This document shows positions 36,758 to 61,906 of a DNA stretch of 64,000 nt, one piece after another. The position numbers were made by a program, and so were the translations under genes. How positions within the stretch are numbered: the stretch's first letter is position 1; each line of letters begins with the position of its first letter. The notes beneath the pieces were generated by a model. It was not told the origin of the DNA. It saw only the letters and a list, made by a program, of their open reading frames with translations, and made no database searches. Source of the DNA: Nitrospiraceae bacterium (GTDB lineage Bacteria > Nitrospirota > Nitrospiria > Nitrospirales > Nitrospiraceae); the NCBI GenBank assembly GCA_050246315.1, contig JBFWWG010000009.1, positions 20,001 to 84,000 on the forward strand, read 5' to 3'.

Positions 36758-39460
<2,703 letters not shown>

Positions 39461-39587: not shown

Positions 39588-39617
39588 TTGACAGGAGGCC
39601 GCCGAAATTCTTAGCAT
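39588..39617 (+). promoter_or_regulatory. Putative sigma70 promoter ahead of the His/Cys-rich leader ORF
   Basis: Perfect TTGACA followed by an 18-nt spacer and TAGCAT. Confidence 0.55.
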
Positions 39618-39625
39618 CAGGGCGG

Positions 39626-39982
39626 ATGTTTACGTACCTCTCGTCGAGATCCATTGCGATGGCCGCCAGCCGGTCGATCACCGGTGCGCGCCCTGTGGTT
39701 GCGCTCGTTCTCGTCGTCCTGCTGATCGGGCTCTCCGCAATGCTCTACCCGGCCAGCGTGCCCCATCTGATGCACCACGCGCAGCACCAGACGGGCACGC
39801 ACGGGACGGCTCTCTGTTCCTGGGAGTGTGCCGCGGGGCAGGTGGCGGACCACGGCGCCCTCAATCTGCCTTTTGTATCGCTCGCCTCAGAGCGCGCGTT
39901 TCTCTTGCAGGGCCGCGTCTCCCCCTCTCTGCTTGCGGTCGAAGGATCTTCCCGTTCCCCGCCATCCGTTCATACCGCCTAG
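39626..39982 (+). CDS. DUF2946/CruR/CutF-like leader protein ending in RSPP
   Basis: Hydrophobic N-terminal helix, HLMHHAQHQTGTHG, CSWEC, and C-terminal SSRSPPSVHTA. The start may be the ATG at 39659. Confidence 0.65.
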   Translation: MFTYLSSRSIAMAASRSITGARPVVALVLVVLLIGLSAMLYPASVPHLMHHAQHQTGTHGTALCSWECAAGQVADHGALNLPFVSLASERAFLLQGRVSPSLLAVEGSSRSPPSVHTA

Positions 39983-40099: not shown

Positions 40100-41377
40100 A
40101 TGCGATCCGTCTCGATCGCCCGTTGCGCATTCGCATTATTGGTTGGCGCCATCGGCTCGTTCTTGGAAGCCGGGGCGGTGGATGGGGCGCCGACCCTGGA
40201 TGCGCTGATTCTTGATTCGCCGAAAACGCTGGTGGAAACCCCCGGGCAACTGTCGCCGCCGGCGCTCCAATTCAACCAGGAGGGCCATCTCTACGTGGCG
40301 TGGTTTGAAAAACAGGAGGGGGGAGCGAACGTTAAGGTGGCGCGGGTCGAGGGCGAAGCGGTCTCCAGAGCGATTCAGGTCAACCGCGACGGGGAGGGGC
40401 CTGGCGCCGTGCATCAATCCCCCGGTGTGGCGGTCGGAGCCGGCGGTAGCCTGTACGTGACGTGGTCGTCGGCCAATCAGACGCCGGGAGCGATGTTCGC
40501 GTCGGACCTGCGGCTCGCCCGATCAAGCGACGGCGGCCGCACCTTCGCATCTCCAGTTCCGGTCAATGACGATGGCCTGCCGATCTCGCACTCCTTTGAA
40601 GATATCACGGTCGTTCCCGAAGGAGATGTCTACCTGGCTTGGTTGGACGGACGAAACAAGGAACGGAGCGGAGCGGGAATTCTCTTTGCCCGATCCACGG
40701 ATCATGGCCGCTCGATCGAGCGCAATCTCCAGATCGACGGCATGGCCTGTCCCTGCTGCCGTCCCATGCTGGCGAAGGCCCCGGACGGCCACCTCTGGGT
40801 CGCGTGGCGAAAGGTGTTGGACGGGAACGTGCGCGACATTGTCATTGCCAAATCCGCCGATCGCGGCCGTTCCTTTGATCCCCCGAGGCTTGTGCGGAAG
40901 GACAACTGGGTCTTCACAGCCTGTCCGCACCGAGGGCCCTCGCTGGCGTTCGATCGGTTCGGGCGGATGTATGTCGGATGGTATACGGAAGGGACGGATG
41001 AGCAGCCGCGTCTCTTTGTGGCCACGTCCGACGACCAAGGAAACACGTTTACGGAGCCTGTTCCTCTGCATGTCTCCACGACGTCCGTGCCCGATCAGTT
41101 GCGGATGGCCGTGCATCCCGACGGAGCAATCGTTGCCGTGTGGGAAGAGCTGACCGGGGTCCGAAAGGAAACCGTGATGCGCCTCTCCATGGATCGAGGC
41201 CGATCATTCGGTCCGGTCAAGAAGCTGAGCGCCGCCGCCAAGGCCGAACACCCGACTGTGGCCATCGATCGGAGCGGTCGTGTCGCGCTCAGTTGGTCGG
41301 AACATACATTCCCGATGAACCGACTGTTGGTGCAACAGGGACAACTTGATTTGAACGAGATCACCGGAAAGCCATGA
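40100..41377 (+). CDS. Exported BNR/Asp-box repeat beta-propeller (sialidase-like fold) with CPCC and CPH motifs
   Basis: Repeated SxDxGxTF/SF Asp boxes (SSDGGRTF, STDHGRS, SADRGRSF, SDDQGNTF, SMDRGRSF); MACPCCRP; TACPHRGP. Confidence 0.8.
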   Translation: MRSVSIARCAFALLVGAIGSFLEAGAVDGAPTLDALILDSPKTLVETPGQLSPPALQFNQEGHLYVAWFEKQEGGANVKVARVEGEAVSRAIQVNRDGEGPGAVHQSPGVAVGAGGSLYVTWSSANQTPGAMFASDLRLARSSDGGRTFASPVPVNDDGLPISHSFEDITVVPEGDVYLAWLDGRNKERSGAGILFARSTDHGRSIERNLQIDGMACPCCRPMLAKAPDGHLWVAWRKVLDGNVRDIVIAKSADRGRSFDPPRLVRKDNWVFTACPHRGPSLAFDRFGRMYVGWYTEGTDEQPRLFVATSDDQGNTFTEPVPLHVSTTSVPDQLRMAVHPDGAIVAVWEELTGVRKETVMRLSMDRGRSFGPVKKLSAAAKAEHPTVAIDRSGRVALSWSEHTFPMNRLLVQQGQLDLNEITGKP

Positions 41378-42648
41378 CTCAAACGGGTGTGCTCATGACC
41401 TATGATGTTCGATGCCGGATATCGGGATGGGTAGCGTCCTCGGTGCTCCATTTGTGCGCCGTCGGCCTGGCCGTCATACTTGTCGAGGAAATGAAGCCTC
41501 CGGCCGATCCCTCTCCCTTTCAGTGGGAGGTCGCGCTGATTGAAGCCGTCAACAGGTCCGATTCTCCGCAAGCGGCGGCATCGCCAGCCGACCCGGCGCC
41601 CTCGCCTCCTAAGGTTGATCAGAGCGTTCCTCCAACACCCACAGTGGTGACCAGGCAGGTCCATACGAGGGTTGAGACAAGGGTGGCGCAGGGCCGGCCA
41701 GATCGAATCGATCGCCAGGTCCAGCCGGTTAAACAGCGAGAAGAAGCCGTTCAGGAACCGACGACGCAGGCCGTCCAACCCGTGATAGAAACCGCGATGG
41801 CCGACGAGCAGCAGCCCATCCAGGAGCGAGCTGCGATCCTGTCGGCGAATGCCGCGAAGACTGCCGTGGAATCCGTTCCGGTGGAGTCGCCTACGACGAT
41901 CGATCGAATCGAATCGACACCGGCCGTCGTCTCGACGGCAACGACTGACGTGGCTCGTACGGTCGCGGCCAATCACGCCGAGGAGTCTGTGAGTGCGCCT
42001 GTCGTTGAGCGCGGCGCACCGGTCGAGAGCGCCGCGCCTATCGTCGAGTCGAGGCAACCGCTGGTCGCCCAGGCCGTGACGAGCGGGGCGGAATCGGTCG
42101 TGCCGAAGGAGGAGCGCACCGCGGTCGTGACGGCACAGGAGATTTACGAGACGCCCGTACCGGCCACCGTGACGCAACAGGTGGCGGCCCTGCCTCCCGC
42201 GGCTGAGGCCGGATCGGTCAAGACGGCGCCGGAATCTCCACCGTCGGATGCGGCGCCGGAGGCCGTTCGGTCGCCCATTAGTGAGCAGAAGGAAGCGGTT
42301 GGACGCGAGACAGATCAGGTCGTTGCCAAATCGTCGAGACAGACACCCGGGACGAAGGCGGATTACCGTTGGTTGGCTGAATCGCTCTACCACCGCATTG
42401 CGGAGTTGAAGCGCTATCCGAGCGCTGCACGGCTGAACGGATGGGAAGGGAAGGTCGTGCTTCGCGCCGTGATCAAAGCCGATGGCAATCTGGCCGATCT
42501 GCGGGTTCAGAAGAGTTCCGGGTTCGATGCCTTGGATCAGGCCGCGCTCGACACGGTCCGCCAAGCCTGTCCGCTGCATCTGAAGCATGAGCTGGGCCGA
42601 CCCGAGGTGGTGGTGAGTTTGCCGATCGTCTACAGCTTGTCGAACTGA
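41374..42648 (+). CDS. TonB-family energy transducer with a long Pro/Ala/Glu/Val linker
   Basis: N-terminal SxxLH anchor (SSVLHLCAV) and TonB_C domain YPSAARLNGWEGKVVLRAVIKADG...SSGFDALDQAA. Confidence 0.88.
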   Translation: MTQTGVLMTYDVRCRISGWVASSVLHLCAVGLAVILVEEMKPPADPSPFQWEVALIEAVNRSDSPQAAASPADPAPSPPKVDQSVPPTPTVVTRQVHTRVETRVAQGRPDRIDRQVQPVKQREEAVQEPTTQAVQPVIETAMADEQQPIQERAAILSANAAKTAVESVPVESPTTIDRIESTPAVVSTATTDVARTVAANHAEESVSAPVVERGAPVESAAPIVESRQPLVAQAVTSGAESVVPKEERTAVVTAQEIYETPVPATVTQQVAALPPAAEAGSVKTAPESPPSDAAPEAVRSPISEQKEAVGRETDQVVAKSSRQTPGTKADYRWLAESLYHRIAELKRYPSAARLNGWEGKVVLRAVIKADGNLADLRVQKSSGFDALDQAALDTVRQACPLHLKHELGRPEVVVSLPIVYSLSN

Positions 42649-42664
42649 TGCAACGCGAGGGCTT

Positions 42665-43237
42665 GTGATGCGCGCGAACAGACTGAGCGGCGGAAGGATC
42701 AGAGCCCGGACCCTGTGGGGGCTGTGCCTGGCCGGTCTCATCCTCTGGATGCCGGGATGGCCGGCGCACGCGGATGATCCGATGACGGCCATGAAAATGG
42801 CGCGCGTCCCTCCGGGGACGACCGCGGTGTCATTCGAGCTGCCTTCCTTGGACGGTGGCAGGATGCGGTTGCAAGACTTTGCGGGGAAGGTCGTGCTGCT
42901 CAACTTCTGGGCCACCTGGTGCGGGCCATGCAGGGACGAAATGCCGTCGCTGGGACGATTGCGGGAGCGGCTCGATCCGAAGTCATTTGCGGTCGTCACG
43001 ATGACGACCGATGTGCAGAAGGAAGGGATTCGACAGTTCTTGGCGCAACTTCGAGTGATGTTGCCCGTCCTCTTCGACGAGCAGCAGGACGTGTCGCGCG
43101 CGTTCATGGTGCGTGGGCTGCCGACGACGGTGCTGATCGGGGCGGACGGCGCGCTGCTCGCTCGTGCCGTCGGACCGAGAGAATGGGACAGCGCGCCGGC
43201 CTTGGCAGTCATGCGACAGGCCTTAGCCCGGGAATAA
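42665..43237 (+). CDS. TlpA-like thiol:disulfide oxidoreductase
   Basis: KVVLLNFWATWCGPCRDEMPSL, VRGLPTTVLIG. Confidence 0.93.
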   Translation: MMRANRLSGGRIRARTLWGLCLAGLILWMPGWPAHADDPMTAMKMARVPPGTTAVSFELPSLDGGRMRLQDFAGKVVLLNFWATWCGPCRDEMPSLGRLRERLDPKSFAVVTMTTDVQKEGIRQFLAQLRVMLPVLFDEQQDVSRAFMVRGLPTTVLIGADGALLARAVGPREWDSAPALAVMRQALARE

Positions 43238-43492: not shown

Positions 43493-43813
43493 ATGGCACA
43501 GCGCACCTTCCGAATCCACATCTGGACGGCCGGTTACCTGGCGGCGACCTATGCTGTCCTGTTGCTGCTCGTGGCGGTCTGTTCCGCCGAGCCGCATCCG
43601 GCCTTCACCCATGCACACCACGGCCCGCAAGCCGTGCATTCGCTCCTCTGCGTTTGGGCCTGCCAAGCGGCCTCTGGGGAACAGATCGGCGCCGCCGAAG
43701 CGGTCGTGGCATACCAGCCCTTGATCTTCCTCGTCGCTCCATCTCACCTGACCTCTCTCCCTTCAATCGATCCAACCGGCTGTTCCAGCCGGGCTCCGCC
43801 ACAATCCGCGTAA
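43493..43813 (+). CDS. Second DUF2946/CruR/CutF-like leader protein ending in RAPP
   Basis: Hydrophobic helix YAVLLLLVAVC, HPAFTHAHHG, HSLLCVWAC, and C-terminal SSRAPPQSA; paralogous to 39626-39982. Confidence 0.68.
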   Translation: MAQRTFRIHIWTAGYLAATYAVLLLLVAVCSAEPHPAFTHAHHGPQAVHSLLCVWACQAASGEQIGAAEAVVAYQPLIFLVAPSHLTSLPSIDPTGCSSRAPPQSA

Positions 43814-44329
43814 CAAGCTCGGCGTATCCGGCGTTCGGGGAGTGCCGCATCCTGTCTCTGAAGCAGGCGCCTGGCCATCAACCCGTTGTCATCAGTCGCT
43901 ATTCAACATCCTGGTTTGCCGTGAAGGGCCATTCTGGCGCGTGTGCGTGGCGTCAGTGACAGGGGAACGATTGAGAGTGGGTCCGAGACGCCGGGCTGCC
44001 TCCTTGGCCTGGACTGACACAGGGAAGCGACGCTCATTCCCAAGGGTCCCTTCCTCCCCTCTCCCTTGGGGCGAGATGGAGATGGTTCATGAAGCCTGAC
44101 TTTCAGATCGACCTCGCGCGGATCGTATTGGCGACGGCGGTACGATGGGTCGCCGACCCTGCGACAGGGACGCTTTCACATCCCTATCTTCAGTGCGGTC
44201 TCCGAATGTGTGACGGCAAACGGCGGCGGGCAGCTTGTCGTCCAGATCGTGGGTCGGGTGTGCCACGACCAGCGGCATCACATCAAGGCGACCTAGTGAC
44301 GGTGCACGTAGAGACCGCGAAAGATTTTC

Positions 44330-44526
44330 GTCTAGCCGTACAGGCGGAGGCGGATGAAATCGCCCACCTGCCCGGCTGGATCGTGAGCAACGCGGAGGAT
44401 GGCGCCCTTCCCGGCAATCCGCTCGACGACTTCGAGGCCGTGCAGGCGATCCGCCTTCGAGTCAAGCAAGGCCGCCTGGTCCACGACTCAAACCGGCTCA
44501 AACCTGATGAAAGGATGCGTGGATGA
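44330..44526 (+). pseudogene. Possible degenerate amidohydrolase C-terminal remnant
   Basis: LPGNPLDDFEAVQAIRLRVKQGRLV resembles the amidohydrolase C-terminal GNPLxD...IxxVxKxGRxV pattern; no recognisable N-terminal domain. Confidence 0.35.
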
Positions 44527-46793
44527 TGAACGGGACATGGAGTCGAAGGTGTCGATGGCTGTTGTTCGCTGTCGCCGTCATCGCTGCGTGGGCGCCGCTC
44601 TCGCCCGAGGCGTGGAGCGCGGACGAAGAGACCGATGAGGAAACGCCGTTGATCGAGGTTGCGCCCGTGGAGGTGAGGGGGCAACGGATCGAAAACGTCA
44701 ACGACGTGAAGAAGGAGTTTGCGCGACGGCCGGCCAGCAATATCCTGATCGAAGAAAAGCAGATTACGGAGACTCGCGCGTTGAATCTGCAGGATGTCCT
44801 GCAATTCGCCCCGGGGGTGCGGTTTCAGTCCCGGTTCGGCGCGGATGAGGGCCAGTTTCAAATACGCGGCACCTCGCTTCGGAACAATTTTCACCATCGA
44901 GGGGTCAACATCCTGATCAACGGGATTTACTTCGGCGACGCGGACGGATTTTCGGATTTCGAGTCGATCGATCTGTTGGCGTACGAACGCATTGAAGTCT
45001 ACAAGGGTGCCAATGCCCTGCGGTACGGAGCCAATGCGATCGGCGGCGCGATCAATTTCGTGCCGCGGACCGGATACAGCGCCTCGCTGTTGCAAATGCG
45101 GTTGATCGGCGGCAGTTTCGGCATGGTGAGCGGGCAGGTCTCCAGCGGTAAGGTCACGCAACCTTTCAAAGTGGGGCACATGGACGCGACGATGGATTAC
45201 TACGTCAGCGTGAGCGCCAACCGCCAAGACGGGTTTCAGAGCAACAGCCAGCAGTCGCGGGAGCGTGTCAACGCCAATATCGGTCTGCAATTGGGATCTC
45301 ATCAGGAAATCCGGGCCTATTTTCTTCAGACGAACGTGGCCGAACGGATTCCCGGGGCTCTCACCACGGCTCAAATGTTCGCCGATCGACGACAAGCCGG
45401 AGGACAAACTCCCCCGCCGCTTCCGCCGCCCTTCTTCGCCTGTGTCCAGAACAACCAAACCTGCAACTATGGACGCTACTACAACTTGCAGCGGATCGGG
45501 CTGGCCTATCGGAATGAATTTTCGACGAACCAGTTCTTGGAAATCATTCCCTACTACTCCTACCAGTATCTCGACCATCCGATCTTTCAGACGATCAAAC
45601 AGGACAATAACAACGTCGGCGGCGAGATCCGCTACCGGAACGCGAACCACCTATTCGGCCGGCCGAACGTCTTCGTGGCAGGCGTTCAACCGCGCTACGG
45701 CGCTCAAGCACAATCGCGGTTCGTGAATATCAACGGCAACAACGGCGCGATGACCCAAAACGCGCATCTCAAAACGACCTACTTCGGGGCGTATGCCGAA
45801 GATCAGTTCGATGCTACGGAGGCGCTGACCCTGGTCGCGGGCGGCCGGTGGGACTACAGTGGGCGGCAGGGCACGATCCAGAACTTTGGGCCGGCGGGCA
45901 ATCCGTTCAATCCCAACACCCCGTCCGTCCCCACCACCCTGCAACAGCCACTTCACGATTTTGACGCCCTCAGCCCCAAGCTCGGGTTCGTGTACCGGAC
46001 GTCGCCGCATGCCCAACTCTATTTCAACGCCAGCCGGGCCTATGAGGCGCCGATCAATGTGGAGCTGACATCGGCCTTCAATCCGGACGGCAGCCCTAAC
46101 ACCGGCTTCCTAAACCTGGACGCCCAACGGGCCTGGCAGTTCGAAATCGGACATCGCGGCAAGGCCGCCGATGGACGGTACTTCTGGGACCTCACGGTCT
46201 ACGATCTCGAAATGCAGAAAGAGATCATCACCAACGTGATCAACAACACCAATACGTTCCGTAACGCCAATGCGACGAGACACACGGGAGTGGAAGTCGG
46301 CGGTGCCATCGTGGTGGCGAAGGGGCTGTGGGAAAAGGGACCCGGGCAGGAGGCGGATCAGGTCACCATGCGGGCGGCCTATACCTGGTCGCTGTTCCAA
46401 TTTACCGACGACGTATTTGGAGCGATGACGACCGGAGGGCCCAATGTCCTCATCGCCAAGAGCGGAAATCGCATTGCCGGGGCGCCGGAGCACAATTTGG
46501 CCTACGAGGTCCGCTACGATCATCCGAGGGGCTGGTGGGTGGCACCCAGCTTCGAGTGGGTTCCGAGCGGGTTCTACGTGGACTATCTGAACACGGTGAA
46601 GAATCCCTCCTACTTCGTGCTTCATCTGAGGTCGGGCTGGAACCTGACCCAGCACCTGACCTTCTATGCGGAGGCACGAAATCTGACGGATAAAACCTAT
46701 GCCGGCGCCGTAGTCGTCAACGATCCGTTGTTCCGCTATGCCAACGTGGCGCAAGGGATCAGCGGCTATGCGGGGCTCGAATATAAGTTCTAG
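44523..46793 (+). CDS. TonB-dependent outer-membrane receptor (YncD-like plug motif)
   Basis: Signal peptide; plug QIRGTSLRNNFHHRGVNILINGIYFGDADGFSDFESID..RIEVYKGANALRYGANAIGGAINF; C-terminal aromatic GLEYKF. Confidence 0.93.
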   Translation: MMNGTWSRRCRWLLFAVAVIAAWAPLSPEAWSADEETDEETPLIEVAPVEVRGQRIENVNDVKKEFARRPASNILIEEKQITETRALNLQDVLQFAPGVRFQSRFGADEGQFQIRGTSLRNNFHHRGVNILINGIYFGDADGFSDFESIDLLAYERIEVYKGANALRYGANAIGGAINFVPRTGYSASLLQMRLIGGSFGMVSGQVSSGKVTQPFKVGHMDATMDYYVSVSANRQDGFQSNSQQSRERVNANIGLQLGSHQEIRAYFLQTNVAERIPGALTTAQMFADRRQAGGQTPPPLPPPFFACVQNNQTCNYGRYYNLQRIGLAYRNEFSTNQFLEIIPYYSYQYLDHPIFQTIKQDNNNVGGEIRYRNANHLFGRPNVFVAGVQPRYGAQAQSRFVNINGNNGAMTQNAHLKTTYFGAYAEDQFDATEALTLVAGGRWDYSGRQGTIQNFGPAGNPFNPNTPSVPTTLQQPLHDFDALSPKLGFVYRTSPHAQLYFNASRAYEAPINVELTSAFNPDGSPNTGFLNLDAQRAWQFEIGHRGKAADGRYFWDLTVYDLEMQKEIITNVINNTNTFRNANATRHTGVEVGGAIVVAKGLWEKGPGQEADQVTMRAAYTWSLFQFTDDVFGAMTTGGPNVLIAKSGNRIAGAPEHNLAYEVRYDHPRGWWVAPSFEWVPSGFYVDYLNTVKNPSYFVLHLRSGWNLTQHLTFYAEARNLTDKTYAGAVVVNDPLFRYANVAQGISGYAGLEYKF

Positions 46794-46959: not shown

Positions 46960-48069
46960 GTGATCAACCGGTGGTCGGGGGAAGAGGTCCGTGCGGACAT
47001 TCGAGCCGTGGCCGTTCCGCCGGTCAAGAGAGTACGGGGCCGGCTGATGGCGGGACTCCTGCCGGCGATCCTCGTCGCGCTTTCAGCGACTGCCGAAGCC
47101 GTTCCATCCGAGAGCGCGACTCGTCAATATGAGCGCGGCCTTCAATTGGTGAAGGAGCGGCAGATCGACGGGGCGATCGAAGCCTTCACCCGGGCGACCG
47201 AAGCGGACCCTCGATTCGCAGAGGCCCACTATCAGTTGGGACTCGCGTTGCTGACGGGCAAGAAACAGCGGCAGGAGGCGGCGGATGCGTTTCGCCGGGC
47301 GCTGTCCGCCTCTCCCAAACATGTCGAGGCGCGATATGAGTTGTCGATCTTGGCGCTGCAGGACGGACAGACGCGGGAGGCCGAGCAGGGTTTCCTCCGC
47401 GTGATCGAGCTGGCCCCCCAACATGAGCAGGCCTATCTGGAACTCGGTCAACTCTACGAACGCCGACCCGCACCGGAGTTGGCGATCAAGACATATCGAG
47501 CCTTGCTCACGGTCGATCGGGATCACCCGGAGGCGCTCTATCGGCTGGCCGGTCTTGCGGACGCCTCGGGAGACGCCGCCGGGGCCACGCGCTATCTGGA
47601 CCGGCTGTTGAAAGCGCGCCCGAGGCATGCCGACGGCTGGTATCTCAAAGGCCGCATCGCCGAAAGGCACAACGATCTGGTGGAAGCGGCCTACGCCTAT
47701 CGCCAGGCCATTCAAGCCAAACCGGGATTCATCGACGCACGCTACAACCTGGCCTTTATTCTCCGGAGTCAGGGGCAGACAGCGGAGGCCGCCGAACAAT
47801 TATCGGATATCATCCGACTGAAGCCGGAGCATGCCGATGCCCATATGAATCTCGGGTTGGTCTATACAAGTCTCAACCGCCTCGATGATGCCGAGCGAGA
47901 GTACGAAGCGGCGGTCACCTTCAACCCGGACCTCGCCGAAGCTCATTACAATTTCGGCGTGTTTTTGGAACTGCATCGCAAGGACATGGTTCGCGCCCTC
48001 GCGCAATATCGGAAGTATCACGAACTGGGAGGGCGGGATGATCGGGTCGAGCGCATCCTCGGCCCCTAA
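46960..48069 (+). CDS. Tetratricopeptide repeat protein, probably exported
   Basis: About 8 TPR-like repeats (AEAHYQLGLALL, ADAHMNLGLVY, AEAHYNFGVFL); signal-like MAGLLPAILVALSATAEA. Confidence 0.88.
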   Translation: MINRWSGEEVRADIRAVAVPPVKRVRGRLMAGLLPAILVALSATAEAVPSESATRQYERGLQLVKERQIDGAIEAFTRATEADPRFAEAHYQLGLALLTGKKQRQEAADAFRRALSASPKHVEARYELSILALQDGQTREAEQGFLRVIELAPQHEQAYLELGQLYERRPAPELAIKTYRALLTVDRDHPEALYRLAGLADASGDAAGATRYLDRLLKARPRHADGWYLKGRIAERHNDLVEAAYAYRQAIQAKPGFIDARYNLAFILRSQGQTAEAAEQLSDIIRLKPEHADAHMNLGLVYTSLNRLDDAEREYEAAVTFNPDLAEAHYNFGVFLELHRKDMVRALAQYRKYHELGGRDDRVERILGP

Positions 48070-48332: not shown

Positions 48333-48872
48333 CTACCACCACCAGGGATAGCGGCCATAGGGTCCCCAGAAATTATAATAGCCCGGGTAGACCGGCTGAT
48401 TGAGGTAACGGACCTCCGTCGGCGGGCTCCAGACGCGGATCTGGCGGATGGTGAGGAGGGGATAGACATACTCGATCTCATCGAGCGGGAGCGTGGTGCT
48501 GCCGCTGGCTTCTCCCACGACCGTGACGCGGGTCCCCGGTGGCAAGGCGGCCGGGTCCACCGGCTTGGTCTCCAGAGCAAAAAAGCGGCCTTGCGTCGCC
48601 ATGCGATCCGGTGAAGGTTCATAACGGTCGCCCAGTGGGAGTTGCAGGACTTCGACTCTGGTTCCTGTCTTGAGGCGTTTGGCGGAAAGCACTTCTCCTC
48701 CAAACATGACGACATGCCCACGATAACTGTCGGGCATCTCAATGAGCTGTGGAAAGGTGATGGTCCGGTCGATCTCTTCAGCTTGAGTGATCTCTGCGGT
48801 CCAGGGAGATTTCGTACAGCCCGCGGCGACGAGGCACAGAGGCAGGACGGTGATCGGCATCCATCGGATCAT
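48333..48872 (-). CDS. Slp-family outer-membrane lipoprotein
   Basis: Lipobox VAAGC; GHVVMFGGEVL, VEVLQLPL, QGRFFA, VDPAALPPGTRVTVVG. Confidence 0.88.
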   Translation of the reverse strand: MIRWMPITVLPLCLVAAGCTKSPWTAEITQAEEIDRTITFPQLIEMPDSYRGHVVMFGGEVLSAKRLKTGTRVEVLQLPLGDRYEPSPDRMATQGRFFALETKPVDPAALPPGTRVTVVGEASGSTTLPLDEIEYVYPLLTIRQIRVWSPPTEVRYLNQPVYPGYYNFWGPYGRYPWWW

Positions 48873-48962
48873 AGCCGGAGTAGAGCAAGCGCATGTTCGT
48901 GGTTCATGGACTATAATGAATCAGCCGTCCGGGAACGGGTGGAGAAAAGAAAGGAGCGTCCG

Positions 48963-49622
48963 GTGAATCGTGGTGGACAGATCTGGAGAGTGGTCGTGTT
49001 GGCGGTGGCGGCTGGTCTGTGGTCCGTGTCCAGCGGACTGTCGGCCGGTGCGGCGGGCAAAGGCGACAAGGTCGAATTGAAAGGCAAGTACGAATTGGTC
49101 AACGAGCCCTCGACCCACGTCAAAGGCAAAGTGAAGCTGGTTGAGTTTGCCGATTTTTACTGTCCGCATTGCCATCACTTCGAGGAGGCCGGGCTGCCGG
49201 TCCTGAAAAAGGAATTCGGCGATAAGCTGGACGCAACCATGGTGGGTTTCCCGGTCTTTCGGCAGATGTTGCCGACGCCGTTCGAAATGTATGAGCAGGC
49301 GAAGACCATGGGGAAGGGCGAAGAAATGAAAAAAGTCCTCTTCCGCACCATCCATACCGATAAGGTCAAGATCTTTGATAAATCGCTCCGCGCCGTTCTG
49401 ATCAAGGAGGTCGGCCTGGACCCCGTGGCCTTCGAGCAGGGATTGGAGAGCGGGAAGCCCATCAAAGCGCTCGAGGAAGGCAAGCGATGGGGCGAACGCA
49501 TCAATCTGCAGCAAACGCCCACCTTGTTGCTCGACGGGTACGTCAAAGTCACCGACATCAACCCTGATAACGTCAAAGTTGTCATCCAGAGCATCCTGGA
49601 TCAGGAGGCGAAGAAGCGGTAG
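48963..49622 (+). CDS. DsbA-family thiol:disulfide oxidoreductase
   Basis: [14 protein letters not shown] and cis-Pro loop [10 protein letters not shown]; GTG start at 48963 with SD AAGGAG. Confidence 0.88.
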
Positions 49623-49657: not shown

Positions 49658-52327
49658 GTGGCGTCCGATCCGATCTGTGGGATGACCGTCGAGCCTGTCA
49701 CGGCGGCAGGCCGTTACGACTACGAGGGCACGACCTACTATTTTTGCAGCCAGCATTGCCTGCATACCTTCCAGGCAAACCCTGTCCGTTACGCCAACGC
49801 GTCCTCCACCAGGTCCTCTGCAACCGCGACCTCGCCTCTGATGATGCCGAGTCTCTCCAAGAAGGGTCTTGTCATGGTCGAGCCTCCTTCTGCTCCGGCC
49901 GGTCCCACGGCCAAAGATCCGGTCTGTGGGATGACAGTCGTGCAGGCCTCGGCGGCCGCCACCCTCCTGCATGAAGGGACGACCTATTATTTTTGCTGTA
50001 CAGGCTGCCGCGACAGGTTCCAGGCCGATCCCGATCGTTATCTCCATCCGGAGCGGGCCAAGCCTGCCGCTCCGGCCACGGGTACCGTCCAGCGTTACGT
50101 GTGCCCGATGTGTCCGGAAGTCGAATCCAAAACACCGGCCCCCTGCCCGAAGTGCGGCATGGCGCTCGAACCGGCGACTGTGCAGCCCTTGACCGGTACG
50201 GAGTACGTCTGCCCGATGCATCCGGAAGTGCGGCAGGCCGAGCCGGGCTCCTGCCCGATCTGCGGGATGGCGCTGGAGGCCAGGACGGTCGCCAAACAGC
50301 AAGAGGACAACCCCGAGCTCAGCATGATGAGCCGGCGATTCTGGCTCTGCCTGCCGTTGGCGGCGGTGGTTCTGGTTACGGCGATGTCGGACATGATTCC
50401 CGGGCAACCCTTGCAGCAAATCGCCTCCCGAACGCAGCTCAACTGGCTGGAGTTCGTGCTCGCCACGCCGGTGGTCCTCTGGGGAGGCTGGCCGTTCTTC
50501 GAACGGGGTTGGCATTCGGTCACGTCGCGCCATTTCAACATGTTTACCTTGATCGCGATGGGGACGGGCGCCGCCTACGGCTATAGTGTCGTAGCGACGT
50601 TGTTTCCGGACTGGCTGCCGGCCTCGTTCAAACATGCCGGTGGCGCGGTCGCGGTCTATTTTGAGGCGGGAGCCGTGATCACCGTCCTCGTCCTTCTGGG
50701 GCAGGTGCTCGAGCTGCGCGCCCGGAGTCAAACCGGCAGCGCCATACGTTCGCTGTTGCAACTGGCTCCGTCCATCGCTCACCGTCTTCGGGGTCCCGGA
50801 CAGGAGGAAGAGGATATCTCGCTGGAACTGGTCCATCCCGGAGATCGGTTGCGCGTGAGGCCCGGCGAGCACGTTCCGGTGGACGGCCTCGTCATTGAGG
50901 GCAGCAGTGCGGTCGATGAATCGATGCTGACCGGTGAATCGCTGCCGGTGGAGAAGACGGATGGGTCACCTGTAACAGCCGGCACGCTCAACGGGACCGG
51001 TTCCTTCGTGATGCGGGCGGAAAAAGTCGGCGCGGAGACGCTGCTGGCCCGTATCGTGGCGATGGTCAGCGAGGCTCAACGAAGCCGGGCGCCGATTCAA
51101 CGATTGGCCGATGTCGTCTCGGGCTACTTCGTACCGGTCGTGGTGGCGGTCGCGCTGATGGCTGGCCTGGCCTGGTGGTGGTGGGGACCGGAACCTCGCA
51201 TGGCCTTTGCGCTGCTGAACGCGGTCGCGGTGTTGATCATCGCCTGTCCCTGCGCTCTGGGGTTGGCCACGCCGATGTCGATCATGGTGGGAACCGGTCG
51301 AGGAGCGACCGCAGGCGTGCTGGTCAAACATGCCGAGGCGTTGGAGAGGCTGGAGAAGGTCGATACTTTGATTTTCGACAAGACCGGCACCTTGACGGAA
51401 GGAAAGCCGACTTTGAAAAGTTTCCGGTTCGTCCCTCCTTGGGATCAGAACGAACTCCTGCGGTTGGTGGCCAGCCTGGAGCAGGCCAGCGAACACCCGT
51501 TGGCGTCAGCCATCGTGAGGGCGGCGGATCATCAGGGTGTGAAGCGTAGTGAGACGACGCATTTTCAGGCGGTCACCGGCAAGGGGGTCAGAGGGATCGT
51601 CGAGGGAAAGCAGGTGGCGGTCGGGTCGGTCGCATTTCTCAGGGATGAGCTACGAGTGCCGGCGCTGGAATTGCGGGCCTTGGCCGACGAGGGGGAACGA
51701 TTGCGACAGGACGGGCAAACCGTCGTGTTCGTCGCGGTGGAGGGGCATGCGGTGGGGCTGATCGGTGTGGCGGATCAGATCAAGGAGACCACGCCGGAAG
51801 CCGTCCGATTGCTCAGAGAGGACGGATTACGTTTGATCATCGTGACCGGCGACAATCGCACCACCGCCGAGTCCGTCGCCTCCAGGCTGGGAATCACGGA
51901 GGTGCGGGCCGAGGTGCTCCCCGATCACAAGGGGGCCATCGTCAAGCAGTTGCAGGCGGAAGGGCGGATCGTGGCGATGGCCGGAGATGGCGTCAACGAT
52001 GCCCCGGCGCTGGCTCAGGCCGATGTCGGCATCGCCATGGGCACCGGCACCGCCGTCGCCATGGAGAGCGCGGGTATGACCCTGCTCAAGGGGGACCTTC
52101 GCGGTCTCGTCCGAGCTCGGCGATTGAGTCGGGCCACCATGCGGAACATTCGCCAGAATCTGGTGTTCGCCTTCCTTTATAATGCGGTCGGCGTGCCGAT
52201 CGCGGCCGGTGTGCTCTATCCGGTTTGGGGACAGTTGCTAAGTCCGATGCTCGCCAGCGCGGCCATGACGTTCAGCTCGGTGTCGGTCATCGGTAATGCG
52301 CTCAGGTTGCGACGGGTTCTCCTGTAA
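49658..52327 (+). CDS. copA: Cu(I)-translocating P1B-type ATPase with two YHS domains and two CPM(C/H)P metal-binding repeats
   Basis: [80 protein letters not shown]. Confidence 0.95.
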
Positions 52328-52334
52328 AGAAGAC

Positions 52335-53759
52335 ATGCGAAACAGGATGCGACACCGGCTGCCCGTCCAACTCTGCCTCTGTTTCCTCGCCGCGTTGGGG
52401 GGGCAGGCTCCCTGGGCGTCGGGAGCTGATCGGAGCAATGGCCTCGCGTCCGCGATCGATCTGCAAACTCAGATCAAGACCACCGCCTCCAAGGTCACGC
52501 CCGCCGTGGTCAGCATCTCCGCTACCGTGTTTGTGCCCGATCAAGCGCTGAGCGACGAGAACCTGCCCTTTGGATTGTTTCGAGACCAGCCGCAGCTTCG
52601 TCGACAATATGGCCAGGGCTCGGGCGTCATTGTGTCCTCGGACGGGTATATCATCACGAACAACCATGTCGTGGCCGATGCGGTTGATGTGGAAGTCTTG
52701 TTGACCGACCGCCGCCAGTTCAAGGGACGGGTAGTGGCGACCGACCCGAGGACAGATGTGGCCGTTGTCAAGATTCAGGCGGCCACACTCCCGACGGTAC
52801 CATGGGGGGATTCGAGCAAGTTGTCGGTCGGGGATTTTGTGCTGGCGATCGGGAATCCCTTGGGGTTGAGCCGGACCGTGACCTTCGGCATCGTCAGCGC
52901 GGTGGGCCGAGCCGATGTCGGCGTGGCGGATTATGAGGACTTCATCCAGACGGATGCGCCGATTAACCCGGGCAATTCCGGCGGCGCGTTGGTGAATATC
53001 TGGGGCGAATTGGTGGGGATTAACACCGCCATTGCGAGCCCGACCGGTGGCAGCGTCGGCGTTGGGTTTGCCGTGCCGAGCAACATGGCGCGGACGGTGA
53101 TGCAAAGCTTGCTGAAGACGGGCCGGGTGGTACGAGGATTTCTGGGAGCGTCAACTCAAGACGTCACCCCGCTGCTCAGCAAGGTCTTCAAACTTCCGGA
53201 TGTGAAGGGCGCCATTATCACCGATTTGCAGGCCAAGGGGTCGGCCGAGCGGGCGGGCCTTCGCCGCGGCGACGTCGTTGTGCGATTCGACGGGCGTGAG
53301 ATCCCTGACGGGGGACATCTACGCAATGTGATCGCCGCCGCACCGATCGGCAGCCGGCACAAGGTGGAGATCGTGCGCGACGGACGCCTGTTCCAAGCGG
53401 ATTTGGCCGTCCAGGAGGCGCCGCGGGAACGTGCGAGAAAGGCCGAAGCACTCGATTTGGAAAGCCAGCGCACCCATCCGCTGGCGGGGCTGATGATTGA
53501 TGAACTGACCCCGATGATGGCCAAGCAAATGGGGGCGCCGAGTCACACCGGGATCGTCGTGACGGATCTCGAAGAGGGCAGTCTCGCCGAAGCGGCCGGC
53601 ATGCAGCCTGGCGATGTCATCCTCGAAGTCAATCGCCAGCCTGTGCCGAATTTGCTCGCCTACCAACAGGTAGTCGAGCCTATCAAGCCCACTGACCTGA
53701 CTCTCCTCCTCATCAATCGACAGGGAACGGTGCTCTACGTCCCGATCCAGAGCGAATAG
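52335..53759 (+). CDS. DegP/HtrA (Do) serine protease with two PDZ domains
   Basis: GSGVIVSSDGYIITNNHVV, TDVAVVKI, FIQTDAPINPGNSGGALVN. Confidence 0.96.
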   Translation: MRNRMRHRLPVQLCLCFLAALGGQAPWASGADRSNGLASAIDLQTQIKTTASKVTPAVVSISATVFVPDQALSDENLPFGLFRDQPQLRRQYGQGSGVIVSSDGYIITNNHVVADAVDVEVLLTDRRQFKGRVVATDPRTDVAVVKIQAATLPTVPWGDSSKLSVGDFVLAIGNPLGLSRTVTFGIVSAVGRADVGVADYEDFIQTDAPINPGNSGGALVNIWGELVGINTAIASPTGGSVGVGFAVPSNMARTVMQSLLKTGRVVRGFLGASTQDVTPLLSKVFKLPDVKGAIITDLQAKGSAERAGLRRGDVVVRFDGREIPDGGHLRNVIAAAPIGSRHKVEIVRDGRLFQADLAVQEAPRERARKAEALDLESQRTHPLAGLMIDELTPMMAKQMGAPSHTGIVVTDLEEGSLAEAAGMQPGDVILEVNRQPVPNLLAYQQVVEPIKPTDLTLLLINRQGTVLYVPIQSE

Positions 53760-54365
53760 GAGCTGTGACCGCCCTCCTCTCGCTCGTATCCGATTCGATA
53801 CCGATCTGTATCTCTTCGGATACGGCACGAGTGCTTGCCAGACGCTCGGCGTTCAGTAGGGACTCTAACCCGTGCGATTCATGAACGATTCTACGGCAAT
53901 GACGGATTCGCTGCTGCGACGAACCGGGACAGTCGAAGGTGTTTTTCCGGCGGCGTATCAAACAGTGAGGGAGGAACACGCCCGTAGGGTGCTTCTCCGC
54001 AGGCGCTGTTACGGAAATACGATGAATAGCCGACGGTTCAAGCGAAGGTTGGTAGAGAGAGGCTTCGCCTGACAAGCTGCCGGTTCACACGAAGTGTGGT
54101 ATGGCGGGCGGGCTCGCCGCTCAGTCTCTCAACATGCTGTTTCACTTATGCTTCGGGCTATTCACGTCTCCGGGCGTCCGTCTCACGACGTGATTCCATC
54201 ATTTCGTCACGAATCATCATGAATCATGCGGGTTCGGCCACCATACCCACGAGTCGGCTGCTAGGCTGAAGCAGTTGCAGGACCTAGCCGGTACCCAACT
54301 TGCCTCCTTTGTGATCTGAACGGGCACCTGGCTCGCGCTGAGATCCTTGCGGAAGGAGACGGCTC

Positions 54366-54938
54366 ATGAATAAACGACTGGTCACGGGACTTGGAGTTCT
54401 GGGCATGATGATCTGGCTGGCTTTGTTTTCCGCCGGTCTGCTTCTGGATTCGGCGCCCTATCGGAAGGCGATTGCGGCGGCGATGAAGGCCAATCAGTCT
54501 GTACTCCTGGAAGATGTGATCCTGGCTTCGCTGCTTTTTACTCCGACGAACGTGGCCTTCCTCAGCGTCCTGGCCGGATTTCTGGGCGGGTGCACCAGTG
54601 TCCTGAACGATCGCCATCTCTTGCAGGAGGAGATCCATCGGGCGCAGGAGGTGGGGGACCAGGGGCGGGTTTCACGACTGGAGCGCCGGATCAGATTCAT
54701 GGGAGAGTCCCCCATTGTGTCGATGATGCGGGGGTTCGTGGTCTATCTGGCCATCATCTCGGGCATCTTTCTCGTGATCTCCAATCCATTTGATAATCCA
54801 AGCATGGATCAATTCATCCGATTGGCCGGCTTGTTCTCGGTCGTGGCCTTCATGATGGGGTATGATCCGACCCGGTTCGAGGACCTGTTGGAAAAAGTGT
54901 CTTCGCTCAGCCAGAAGCCACCACCGCGCAATCCGTGA
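54366..54938 (+). CDS. Hypothetical membrane protein (about 4 TM helices)
   Basis: Four hydrophobic segments around a charged helix; SD GGAG upstream. Confidence 0.7.
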   Translation: MNKRLVTGLGVLGMMIWLALFSAGLLLDSAPYRKAIAAAMKANQSVLLEDVILASLLFTPTNVAFLSVLAGFLGGCTSVLNDRHLLQEEIHRAQEVGDQGRVSRLERRIRFMGESPIVSMMRGFVVYLAIISGIFLVISNPFDNPSMDQFIRLAGLFSVVAFMMGYDPTRFEDLLEKVSSLSQKPPPRNP

Positions 54939-54972
54939 CGGTCTCTGGAGGCGGGGAGAGGCTCTCGGGCGA

Positions 54973-55665
54973 CTACGTCCGGCGGGAGAAGAAGCGTGAA
55001 AGCCGGGTGAAGAACGAGGCGAGACTGAAAATCAATCCAGCCACGCTTGGGTACAGGCGGGAAGGGGTCGTTCCCACCGTTTCGTTGAAGGGTGAAAACG
55101 TGATCAGCAACAGGCAGCCGTCGTCGGTGGACGTTTCGCGGTGCAGACTGCCCGCTGCCGACCGGTGGTAATCGCCGGGGAAGAGAGCTTGTCCTTCGCA
55201 GACGCACCCGCCCTCCAACACGAACAACTCCTCCACCGCCGCATGCCGATGCGGGGTATGCCGAGTGCCGGGAGCGAATCGGACCAGCGCCGTCGTCCGC
55301 TGCGTGACCGGATCGTTGTAGAGCACCTTCATCTTCGTGCCGGCCGAGACGTCCAACCAGGTCCCTTCCGAGGCCCTGATGTAGGTGAACTCACGGCCGG
55401 CGGAAGCCTCCCGCTGCGGTTCAGCCTGAATGCGGGTCATGAGTTTGGCTCTGAGATCGGTCGGCGGCGGGACGGGGTCGATCAACGTCGCCAAGCGGGC
55501 GGCCGTCTGCCGGAACTCCGCCACTTCCGCCCTGGCCGTTTGCGCGTCGGCGCCTTCATCCTCGATGAGCCGTTCGAACTCACTCAGCTCCTGTCCGTCA
55601 AGGGCGTTCAGCGCAAGTAACGGAGCTTGGTCCTGTCGATCATCCGGTCGTGCCGGCGTCATCAT
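54973..55665 (-). CDS. Anti-sigma factor with ChrR-like cupin domain
   Basis: RskA-like N-terminus (LALNALD..E..EFE...PVPPPTDLRAKLMTRI); cupin HTPHRHAAVEELFVLEG...GDYHRSAAGSLH; overlaps the sigma stop codon. Confidence 0.85.
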   Translation of the reverse strand: MMTPARPDDRQDQAPLLALNALDGQELSEFERLIEDEGADAQTARAEVAEFRQTAARLATLIDPVPPPTDLRAKLMTRIQAEPQREASAGREFTYIRASEGTWLDVSAGTKMKVLYNDPVTQRTTALVRFAPGTRHTPHRHAAVEELFVLEGGCVCEGQALFPGDYHRSAAGSLHRETSTDDGCLLLITFSPFNETVGTTPSRLYPSVAGLIFSLASFFTRLSRFFSRRT

Positions 55666-56255
55666 ACGAGTCCTTTTCCATAGGGAGCGAGAAGATCGCG
55701 CAATTTGATCATGCCCAATCGCATGCGCGTTTTGATGGTTCCCAGAGGAATGCCGAGCCGTTCCGCGATTTCACTCTGACTGTACCCGCCGAAGTACGCC
55801 ATCAGAATCGGCTGCCGCTGTTCCGATGATAGAGCCTTCAGCGCCTGCTGCACGATCCGCCGTTGTTGCTCTTCGGCGGACTGAGCCTCGGGCGTTGCTT
55901 GATTCGATGGAAGCCACTCCGCCTCTTCCATCCGCGTAAATGTGGCCCGTTCGGTGCGCCCGGCCCTGATACGGTCGATGGCGCGGGTGCGGGCGAGGGT
56001 CATGAGCCAGCCTCCGGCGGTGCCCCGTTGTCGATCGTAGGTATGGGCCTGCTTCCAGACTTGCGTGAAGACGTCCAGCATGACCTCCTCAGCCGTATGA
56101 GTATTCCCCACGAGACGGAGGATCAGTCCATAGACTTGCGGGCTGGATTGATCATACAGCACGCCAAAGGCGGTTTGATCGCCCTGTGCCGTCTTGGCGA
56201 TGAGGCCGATCCATTCCTGCTCTTTCGCCGATTGCTCAGCCAGCACGCCAACCAT
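55662..56255 (-). CDS. ECF (sigma-70 group 4) RNA polymerase sigma factor, SigK/RpoE-like
   Basis: GDQTAFGVLYD, AEEVMLDVFTQVW, WLMTLARTRAID, GYSQSEIAERLGIPLGTIKTRMRLG. Confidence 0.95.
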   Translation of the reverse strand: MVGVLAEQSAKEQEWIGLIAKTAQGDQTAFGVLYDQSSPQVYGLILRLVGNTHTAEEVMLDVFTQVWKQAHTYDRQRGTAGGWLMTLARTRAIDRIRAGRTERATFTRMEEAEWLPSNQATPEAQSAEEQQRRIVQQALKALSSEQRQPILMAYFGGYSQSEIAERLGIPLGTIKTRMRLGMIKLRDLLAPYGKGLV

Positions 56256-56274
56256 CCGTTCGGTCTCCTCACAT

Positions 56275-56303
56275 CTCTACGAGATGAGCGGAGGTATTGG
56301 ATT
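56275..56303 (-). promoter_or_regulatory. Putative ECF-sigma promoter driving the sigma/anti-sigma operon
   Basis: Minus strand AATCC-aatacctccgctcatct (17 nt)-CGTAGAG, 19 bp upstream of the start. Confidence 0.6.
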
Positions 56304-56440
56304 CATGGCGATCCATGGTCTGTCCGGACAAAAGATCCGGTAAGGTGGGACCCAAAGGATAGCACTCGGCAATCGGTCGTTCAACCACCCGTCCCAATCG
56401 TCCGAAATTGTAAATGTGAATAATGAAAGTCGAAATCTGA

Positions 56441-56469
56441 AATCCAAACGCTCCGCCGCTCCCGTAGAG
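56441..56469 (+). promoter_or_regulatory. Putative ECF-sigma promoter driving the globin/DUF4331 cluster
   Basis: AATCC-aaacgctccgccgctcc (17 nt)-CGTAGAG; same boxes and spacing as the divergent copy. Confidence 0.6.
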
Positions 56470-56548
56470 GCAAACAGGAATTCATGCAACGGAGTTGAGA
56501 AAGAGGAGCACTTCAAGGTCGGTACTCATTTGACAGGAGGGAGCAACG

Positions 56549-57058
56549 ATGAAGATAGGGAAGGCAGGATGGACCTCGTGGATGGTGATCGGGTTGCTGG
56601 CGATCGCGATCCCGGGCTGCAACATGATGGAGTCATCGTCGGGTGGGAGGACGGCGGATCGGTCGCTCTATGAACGGTTGGGAGGCAAGCCGGCGATCAC
56701 CGCGGTGGTGGACGATTTCGTGGCTCGGGTGGCGGCCGACAACCGGATCAACGGGAAATTCGCCAATGCCGACATCCCTCGACTCAAGATGATGTTGGTC
56801 GATCAAGTTTGTGAAGCGTCCGGGGGACCGTGCAAGTACACGGGGCGCGACATGAAGGCGACCCATGCCGGGATGCAGATCACCGGCGGTGAATTCGATG
56901 CCTTGGTCGAGGATCTGGTGGCCACACTACAGAAGTATAAGGTCGGCGATCGCGAGAAGAAGGAGTTGCTCGGCGCGCTTGGCCCGATGAAGGGGGACAT
57001 TGTCTCCTCCCCCGCCGCCATGGGGCCAAAAGAGGACGACCTGAGGCAATCCAATTGA
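56549..57058 (+). CDS. Group I truncated (2/2) hemoglobin with lipoprotein signal
   Basis: Lipobox-like AIPGC; SLYERLGG, VDDFVARV, ASGGPCKYTG, and proximal His in MKATHAGM. Confidence 0.92.
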   Translation: MKIGKAGWTSWMVIGLLAIAIPGCNMMESSSGGRTADRSLYERLGGKPAITAVVDDFVARVAADNRINGKFANADIPRLKMMLVDQVCEASGGPCKYTGRDMKATHAGMQITGGEFDALVEDLVATLQKYKVGDREKKELLGALGPMKGDIVSSPAAMGPKEDDLRQSN

Positions 57059-57162
57059 TGAGCAGTTCTGAATCCAAAGAGTATTTCCATCAACGGTCGG
57101 CCATGTAGCCGGCTGGCGCTTCTATCACTAGTGGCGCTTACTCCAACAAGGAGAGACAGACC

Positions 57163-58710: not shown

Positions 58711-58740
58711 GTTGGCGTGCAGAATCACAAGGGGGACAAC

Positions 58741-58977
58741 ATGATTCGACTCTCATTCAGAGCATTGGCCATCGGTTGCCTCTTGGCGCTGGCCGGCTGC
58801 GGCGGTGATGACGGGGGAGGGCCGGATGGCCAAGCTGGCGGAAGCGGTGGGTCCGCCGACTCGTTCACGACGATGGTGTCTCAGATCGCCTCCACATCGC
58901 TTGAAGATGTCGAGCCGGCCGACGTGGATCGGCTTGCACCTTCTCAACCGGAGGCGACCGAACCGGCCGCACTGTGA
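58741..58977 (+). CDS. Small acidic lipoprotein
   Basis: Lipobox LALAGC; GGDDGGG...SFTTMVSQIAS..EDVEPADVD. Confidence 0.7.
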   Translation: MIRLSFRALAIGCLLALAGCGGDDGGGPDGQAGGSGGSADSFTTMVSQIASTSLEDVEPADVDRLAPSQPEATEPAAL

Positions 58978-59040
58978 GACGAACGGACGGGCGGGGAGGG
59001 ACAGGCCTCTCCGCACCCCAACCGGACAGGATGGTGAGAG

Positions 59041-60231: not shown

Positions 60232-60234
60232 GGT

Positions 60235-61374: not shown

Positions 61375-61443
61375 GAACAGGGCCGGTGCTGAGTCGAGAC
61401 GGCGACGACGGAGATTGACGACGCAAGAGCAAGGTGATACATA

Positions 61444-61470
61444 GTCACACGAATTACAAATTCGTAATAC
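61444..61470 (+). promoter_or_regulatory. Possible NikR operator (imperfect dyad) in the AT-rich nikR leader
   Basis: GTCACAC-N13-GTAATAC with an inner GAATT/AATTC palindrome; TTGACG at 61415. The left half-site matches weakly. Confidence 0.3.
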
Positions 61471-61487
61471 TGGTACGGGAGTGTGCT

Positions 61488-61904: not shown

Positions 61905-61906
61905 CC

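Follow-up and report, generated by a model that had tools for sequence, protein, structure and literature searches.

A sialidase-named propeller with invariant cysteines in a TonB operon of a Nitrospiraceae bacterium: a candidate periplasmic copper-handling protein

Positions 40100-43237 of a 64,000-nucleotide stretch of a Nitrospiraceae genome (the whole stretch is called the window below) raise the question of why a predicted exported beta-propeller, of a family named 'sialidase' in databases, is encoded together with a TonB protein and a thioredoxin-like protein. Bacterial copper acquisition is poorly understood, and the first TonB-dependent copper importer, together with its leader and its reductase, was resolved between 2022 and 2026, in haem-copper-oxidase organisms only. 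Our analyses revealed that the propeller is not a glycosidase, and we see an even chance that it handles copper in the periplasm, as part of a TonB-dependent import system that responds to copper. The family itself is real, widespread and uncharacterised in the literature that could be searched, and as a new periplasmic component it fits best into copper-responsive, TonB-dependent uptake.

A preliminary description of positions 40100-43237 had listed three reading frames and three sequence motifs, and all of them are found where it placed them. It had also proposed that the propeller and TonB genes are translationally coupled, in agreement with the overlap of the stop and start codons (ccATGAct, 41374-41377). 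The thioredoxin gene begins 17 nucleotides past the TonB stop. The features of this segment are:

40100-41377, plus strand: exported BNR/Asp-box propeller, predicted to be seven-bladed, with a cysteine cluster (P0001, 425 residues; Pfam BNR_2, AlphaFold2)
40589-40603, plus strand: HSFED, residues 164-168, opening the innermost strand of blade 3 in the model; partly conserved in the alignment
40745-40765, plus strand: ACPCCRP, residues 216-222, in the loop right before the innermost strand of blade 4; its three cysteines invariant
40919-40939, plus strand: ACPHRGP, residues 274-280, in the loop right before the innermost strand of blade 5; C275-P276 invariant
41374-42648, plus strand: TonB paralogue (P0002, 424 residues), its start overlapping the propeller stop (TonB_C domain)
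42665-43237, plus strand: exported TlpA/ResA-type thioredoxin-like protein (P0003, 190 residues) with WATWCGPC (AhpC-TSA, Redoxin, PDB 1jfu)

Does the propeller deserve the name of a sialidase? It matches Pfam BNR_2 (E 8.5e-15; 55.3 bits against a cut-off of 31.4), carries five Asp-boxes of the form S-x-D-x-G-x-x-[FW] (at residues 142, 199, 252, 310 and 363) and starts with a signal-like helix. The Asp-box repeats and the beta-propeller fold are shared with GH33 sialidases and other BNR propellers. A genuine exo-alpha-sialidase, or another glycoside hydrolase, as the database names have it, would draw on the BNR_2 match, on those names and on the sialidases among the Foldseek matches, which reach a TM score of only about 0.6 at about 15% identity. 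However, sialidases are six-bladed propellers with a FRIP motif, whereas the AlphaFold2 model of our protein, for which an alignment of 100 family sequences was the input, predicts seven A-B-C strand sets by DSSP with high model confidence (predicted local distance difference test 94.4, predicted template modelling score 0.90). In an exhaustive structural comparison CylK ranked first (Z 35.8), followed by GH145, PLL lectins, PL42 lyase, integrins and hydrazine synthase; seven-bladed propellers of unrelated, non-sialidase functions thus head the whole-fold ranking. Neither the propeller nor the family profile found an informative relative in sequence searches of the PDB, and the alignment of the profile with solved sialidases is confined to the Asp-box segments, where its register is ambiguous. 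The regular expression [FYW]?R[ILV]P for the FRIP motif has no match in P0001. Given this Asp-box-only alignment and the missing FRIP motif, the names 'exo-alpha-sialidase' and 'glycoside hydrolase' are transfers from the repeat and are no evidence of function. Where GH33 sialidases hold their catalytic residues (an Arg triad, a Tyr/Glu nucleophile pair and an acid/base Asp), none of which can be aligned here, the propeller has a cysteine cluster at the active-site-loop position, and no context (Nitrospirota, Gemmatimonadota or Ralstonia) contains carbohydrate genes. The GH33 identity was rejected on the number of blades, the FRIP motif and the restricted alignment, and an enzyme of this kind is hardly credible. 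The earlier view that the motifs do not belong to glycosidase chemistry is thus sustained, all the more as the cysteines are invariant in the family. Among known periplasmic copper chaperone families (Sco, PCuAC, CopC and CusF), none matched P0001 in Pfam or NCBIfam, which returned BNR-type families only. A Tat-exported Fe-S protein was also considered and set aside, the signal of the propeller having no twin arginine. A close structural neighbor in the ESM Atlas (TM 0.85) is a 255-member BNR/Asp-box cluster from Nitrososphaerota, the ammonia-oxidising archaea.

If the propeller does not cleave sugars, its cysteines are the most telling feature. An exhaustive, profile-free search retrieved 417 cluster representatives at E<=1e-30 and 4679 at E<=1e-10. 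Among the 150 best of them, taken unselected, 98 are full-length proteins (385-470 residues), and 97 of these 98 contain a C-x-C-C motif followed 50-72 residues later (about 54) by C-P; the longer form C-P-H is present in 78. In 60 of the 97, the motif cysteines are the sole cysteines after residue 30, i.e. in the mature protein. At the level of sequence, such recurrence is far beyond chance. The alignment of 100 sequences, which are 26-61% identical to the query, has invariant C217, C219, C220, R237, R245, C275, P276 and W294, with W270 conserved in 99% and D268 in 96%. The HSFED motif is less constant, position 167 being His in 50% and Glu in 27%. In propellers, the D-to-A loops surround the opening of the central tunnel, where the active site is usually found and where the catalytic residues of sialidases are also located. 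In the model, both cysteine motifs occupy equivalent sites of consecutive blades in such loops, each of which joins the outer strand of one blade to the innermost strand of the next, while H164 opens the innermost strand of the blade preceding these two.

Conserved cysteines may also have a purely structural role. The propeller would then bind or convert an organic ligand, for example the backbone of a metallophore, its cysteines would form structural disulfides, and the TlpA-like partner would merely be a folding isomerase. Invariant disulfides are indeed common in exported proteins, but C-x-C-C cannot give unstrained internal disulfides for all three of its cysteines. The conserved R237, R245, D268, W270 and W294 could form a pocket for an organic ligand, and the nearest folds are lyases, lectins and an alkylating enzyme; yet the motifs map to active-site loops in the model and not to the blade core. 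A DsbA-like gene is encoded nearby, but a covalently fused reductase-type thioredoxin, as found in the homologues described below, is unusual for a mere folding aid, and some family members reside in copper islands that lack any receptor. We therefore regard this explanation as quite improbable, and return to a role of the cysteines in copper handling.

The next question is what the thioredoxin-like protein contributes. P0003 matches AhpC-TSA (8.5e-23), Redoxin (4e-21) and Thioredoxin_8, has an N-terminal hydrophobic segment, and carries WATWCGPC at residues 82-89. It also matches the TlpA structure 1jfu in the PDB (E 1.2e-23). Its best NCBIfam match is TlpA at 113.9 bits, and since this is under the equivalog cut-off of 230, P0003 is a relative of TlpA and not an equivalog. 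In Bradyrhizobium, TlpA keeps the copper-binding cysteines of its clients ScoI and CoxB reduced (PDB 1jfu, 4txo). The reductases of the two systems are of the same periplasmic TlpA type, whereas the client is a thioredoxin-fold Sco protein in Bradyrhizobium and, as we propose, a seven-bladed propeller in our genome. This genome, which the names of homologues place in Nitrospira, is 100% complete by marker genes, and Pfam searches of the whole of it found no match to PepSY_TM (PF03929), SCO1/SenC, PCuAC, COX1 or COX2. Known TlpA clients are thus missing, which makes the propeller the likeliest client of the operon's reductase. Multicopper-oxidase-type domains and a CcdA/DsbD_TM gene were both found, and there are three Cu-oxidase_3 matches, one in a 352-residue frame on contig C3 and two in a 1635-residue frame on contig C4.

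The link to a thiol reductase, which the preliminary description had drawn from the neighboring gene, is strengthened by gene fusions. A pattern scan with a narrower family alignment yielded 80 loci, all of them from Gemmatimonadota, so the breadth of these contexts across phyla rests on few lineages, and the counts are descriptive, related genomes not being independent. A TlpA-type domain is fused to or abuts the propeller in 29 of 74 such loci, and a domain with WATWCxxC is fused at the C-terminus of the propeller in four (L075, L086, L074 and L032). A further fusion of propeller and thioredoxin (P0052) is Nitrospira-like. These fusions show that propeller and reductase either interact or share a substrate. 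An 805-residue protein from a Joint Genome Institute metagenome (P0294) joins BNR_2, Redoxin/AhpC-TSA and NmrA/NAD(P)-binding domains, and is possibly either a three-way fusion that adds a nucleotide-dependent reductase or a gene-calling artefact; the search for longer fused forms otherwise found only unrelated multi-domain BNR proteins.

The surroundings of the operon bear on its cargo. The leader upstream, and the receptor and CopA-type ATPase downstream, to which the preliminary description had pointed, are all present among the following features:

39588-39617, plus strand: promoter-like TTGACA-18-TAGCAT directly before leader open reading frame (ORF) 1 (consensus scan; weak)
39626-39982, plus strand: leader ORF 1, small and putatively exported (signal-like segment), containing a His-rich run and CSWEC and ending in RSPP; CruR/CutF-like (translation; equivalents in relatives)
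43493-43813, plus strand: leader ORF 2 (HAHH, CVWAC, RAPP), heading the receptor unit (sequence; tblastn matches to the equivalents in relatives)
43814-44522, plus strand: decayed spacer of about 700 nucleotides with an amidohydrolase gene fragment (ORF 44089-44526)
44523-46793, plus strand: TonB-dependent receptor (P0005, 756 residues; plug and barrel domains)
46960-48069, plus strand: TPR protein, syntenic with the module in relatives
48642-49622, plus strand: DsbA-like thioredoxin-fold protein (326 residues), syntenic in relative L027
49658-52327, plus strand: copper-type P1B ATPase with N-terminal YHS and HMBD domains, syntenic in L027

The TonB of the operon has an N-terminal membrane anchor, a linker of about 290 residues with many Ala, Val and Pro, and a TonB_C domain at its C-terminus (E 1.7e-16; 60.8 bits against a cut-off of 24.6; TIGR01352, 61.7 against 27.1). 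The genome contains at least six TonB_C frames, of which this is one. For the receptor, YncD and PqqU are the closest solved relatives (E about 1e-27); no CrtA-named chain is among the matches listed for it, where the sole other 'TonB-dependent receptor' entry is confined to the plug region, and the score of the receptor with TIGR01778 is 28.9 bits (cut-off 472). The P1B ATPase reaches 599.6 bits with TIGR01511, for which the cut-off is 397.

The same parts recur in other lineages. Among 201 Nitrospirota genomes, the source genome included, 25 contain a propeller match, and 17 of these 25 come from the 28 sampled members of the same bacterial family. Six other Nitrospiraceae genomes (L022-L027) have, at the corresponding locus next to secA, two paralogous propellers, about 60% and about 42% identical to the query, together with leader ORFs, a TonB gene, two receptors and either one TlpA-like gene or two; leader-equivalent ORFs head the module in relatives. 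Two distant Nitrospirota have the order TonB, receptor, propeller and thioredoxin. Among the contexts compared, the TonB gene lies inside the module in Nitrospirota only. Of the 69 Gemmatimonadota loci with sufficient flanking sequence, 62 encode a TonB-dependent receptor immediately upstream of the propeller and in the same orientation. The small ORFs before these receptors encode exported, His-rich proteins with motifs of the C-H-C-x-x-x-C type that end in [AT]APP. The sole Pfam family that they match is DUF2946, and weakly so (E 0.012 to 1.5); they seem to represent a Gemmatimonadota branch of CruR/CutF-type leaders, at the edge of what Pfam DUF2946 can detect. Examples of these leader ORFs are L059:4135-4485, L091:3943-4392, L069:4136-4510, L056:3941-4393 and L094:4036-4422; the sequences contain CHC(I/V)GxC(C) and have ends such as ...LPFATAPP..., ...ATAPPLS and ...STAPPKFA.

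On the megaplasmid of Ralstonia solanacearum, the order is a DUF2946 gene, a TonB-dependent receptor, an 'exo-alpha-sialidase' and a 167-residue CSYC protein, with gene starts overlapping the preceding stops. The leader, annotated as DUF2946 by the Prokaryotic Genome Annotation Pipeline, contains CxxC and RAPP, and the propeller carries the motifs TCECCRI and ACPHHGP. The link to TonB-dependent import and a CruR-type leader is thus found again in Nitrospirota, Gemmatimonadota and Ralstonia, and the association of the propeller with receptor, reductase, leader and copper genes extends across phyla. In contrast to these loci, homologues on plasmids of the Roseobacter group, 27-30% identical to the query, have no TonB-dependent receptor alongside (Sulfitobacter P2, L111; Marinovum pMaD4, L113; Pseudosulfitobacter pDSM107133_f, L114). 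They sit inside copper-resistance islands, with multicopper oxidases, DUF411/CopG, a cupredoxin, a 'copper-binding protein', Cus-type RND pumps, FixH and P-type ATPases as neighbors, and lend the proposed copper link independent support. The Sulfitobacter homologue, the only plasmid one translated, keeps C-x-C-C and C-P, with Val replacing the His of C-P-H. Two of the three plasmids were typed as conjugative, and the family can therefore travel with copper-resistance genes.

Since the propeller belongs to a family that, in several phyla, is found in putatively copper-sensing import operons across the outer membrane or in copper-resistance islands, it most likely handles copper and not sugars. 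Everything concerning the metal is drawn from gene context; on this basis we infer that copper is the cargo, that the cysteines bind or reduce it, and in which direction it is transferred. The same architecture might serve another cargo, either another thiophilic metal (zinc, nickel, cobalt, or thio-species of molybdenum or tungsten) or an organic nutrient that contains sulfur or a disulfide and is imported by the receptor. DUF2946 genes appear in a zinc-responsive data set from Caulobacter (PMC4176598), but the only experimentally characterised leaders of such a kind sense copper (PMC9426467, PMC9973294). The receptors adjacent to propellers are diverse, and that of the window is closest to YncD and PqqU, yet the plasmid contexts of the Roseobacter group are copper-specific, with multicopper oxidase, cupredoxin and CopG. 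Finally, a NikR and HupE/UreJ cluster is part of the same window, but it is a copper-type P1B ATPase that is syntenic with the module. We consider a different cargo unlikely, if still deserving of attention, and continue with copper.

The closest known counterpart is the cruR-crtA-crpH operon of Bordetella pertussis. CruR, a DUF2946 protein, is encoded by an exported copper-sensing upstream ORF that controls the copper-import operon crtA-crpH (PMC9426467); CrtA imports chelated copper for haem-copper oxidases (PMC12914433); and CrpH is a PepSY_TM protein that supports these oxidases and whose family includes periplasmic metal-chelate reductases (PMC13038864). The two systems would be alike in an exported leader, putative in the window, with a cysteine motif and a stalling motif of the xAPP type, in the TonB-dependent importer and in the periplasm-facing redox partner, and the Ralstonia propeller operon is also headed by an annotated DUF2946 gene. 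AhpC_TSA genes were among the DUF2946 operon members reported by Roy et al. However, PepSY_TM is found in neither the operon nor the genome studied here, the receptor is not CrtA-like, and the redox partner is a haem membrane reductase in Bordetella but a soluble cysteine-bearing propeller with a thioredoxin in our genome. Bordetella also has haem-copper oxidases, whereas none were detected in our genome, so the destination of the copper must differ. With no COX1 or COX2 match, copper would not be destined for canonical haem-copper oxidases, a departure from the Bordetella paradigm. In the literature that could be searched we found no paper on the propeller family, and neither the supplements of Roy et al. 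nor the later papers on CruR, CrtA and CrpH mention it.

A working sequence of events can be proposed from these comparisons. By analogy with CruR and CutF, the leader peptide would gate expression according to periplasmic copper. The TonB paralogue of the operon, if it acts as other members of its family, would energise the outer-membrane receptor for the import of copper or a copper chelate. The propeller may then take the metal at a hub site contributed by the loops of three neighboring blades (H164; C217, C219 and C220; C275 and H277). The TlpA-like protein, itself reduced via CcdA/DsbD, would keep the propeller cysteines as thiols or return them to that state, and these thiols might either bind Cu(I) or reduce an imported Cu(II) chelate and thereby release the metal. 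Copper would finally be handed on to periplasmic copper enzymes. A copper center at the hub of a seven-bladed periplasmic propeller has a precedent in NosZ, whose CuZ cluster is catalytic and ligated by histidines. The likeness lies in the hub loops holding the metal, whereas NosZ has no sequence similarity and no ranked structural similarity to our propeller among the matches listed. A bolder proposal, which we put forward tentatively and which may well prove wrong, is that the propeller hub holds a Cys4(His) copper-thiolate site and that the propeller, paired with or fused to its own TlpA-type reductase, works as a thiol-driven periplasmic reductase of cupric chelates and as a Cu(I) acceptor. 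Such a pair would be a new copper-trafficking class that stands in for PepSY_TM/CrpH and Sco-type chaperones in nitrifiers, Gemmatimonadota and Ralstonia, and that also serves plasmid copper-resistance islands.

Several observations weigh against the assignment of a copper-handling role. H277 and H164 are conserved in 81% and 61% of the aligned sequences, respectively, so there is no universal histidine ligand. The spatial clustering of the Cys and His residues, which the preliminary description expected, is inferred from the topology of the predicted fold, and the four invariant cysteines of this Sec-exported protein could just form two structural disulfides. A Pfam search with the two leader ORFs of the window returned nothing even at E 10, and thus no DUF2946 match. 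The receptor of the window resembles YncD and PqqU and not CrtA or OprC. Between lineages, the receptors adjacent to propellers are heterogeneous (22-31% identity) and do not form a single orthologous group; what stays constant is therefore the pair of propeller and reductase, and not one transporter. Even the reductase is not always at hand, as 45 of the 74 Gemmatimonadota loci have no adjacent thioredoxin. A Pfam tally of 137 further Gemmatimonadota neighbors contained no recurrent copper chaperone, only scattered amidohydrolase, MsrP/MsrQ-like and thioredoxin matches.

Should the propeller indeed bind or reduce copper, it would fill the periplasmic gap that now separates import across the outer membrane from the copper enzymes, TlpA-like reductases would gain a new client, and a widespread annotation error would be corrected. 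The family comprises hundreds of clusters at 50% identity, mis-named 'sialidase' in databases, and is found in organisms that rely on copper enzymes for their core metabolism or ecology, such as Nitrospira (NirK, multicopper oxidases, amine oxidase). The crop pathogen Ralstonia has it as well. The Ralstonia and Roseobacter strains are culturable and Ralstonia is genetically tractable, which makes the hypothesis directly testable.

The version of the locus in the source genome is a trimmed one. Compared with the six relatives, this genome has, judging from the sequences, lost the second propeller, the second receptor and the amidohydrolase. ORF 44089-44526 matches part of the amidohydrolase of the relatives at 59-60% identity over about 45 residues, and the corresponding Amidohydro_1 match sits on L023:16385-17806 of one relative. 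The relatives often add a second TlpA-like gene and a leader to the locus, and the TlpA-like gene of the window is the orthologue of the gene 3' of their second propeller (60% against 36%). The P1B ATPase, the DsbA-like gene and the TPR gene keep synteny with the module in another genus (L027). The N-terminus of the ATPase is unusual in having two YHS/TRASH-type and two HMBD domains.

Upstream of the module, secA lies on the minus strand (36758-39460), and from there to the P1B ATPase every listed gene is on the plus strand. The promoter-like site at 39588-39617 is near-consensus, and one such site was found against 0.7 expected in shuffled sequences, which is weak. Its end lies 8 nucleotides 5' of the first ATG of leader ORF 1, so this ORF would be nearly leaderless, or else would start at its second ATG (39659, MAASRS...). 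Beyond the ATPase, positions 52296-62332 encode a DegP/HtrA-type protease, an extracytoplasmic function sigma factor with a ChrR-type anti-sigma factor, DUF4331, TPR, HupE/UreJ, NikR and DUF3842 proteins, and are a second metal-related cluster, of the nickel or cobalt type.

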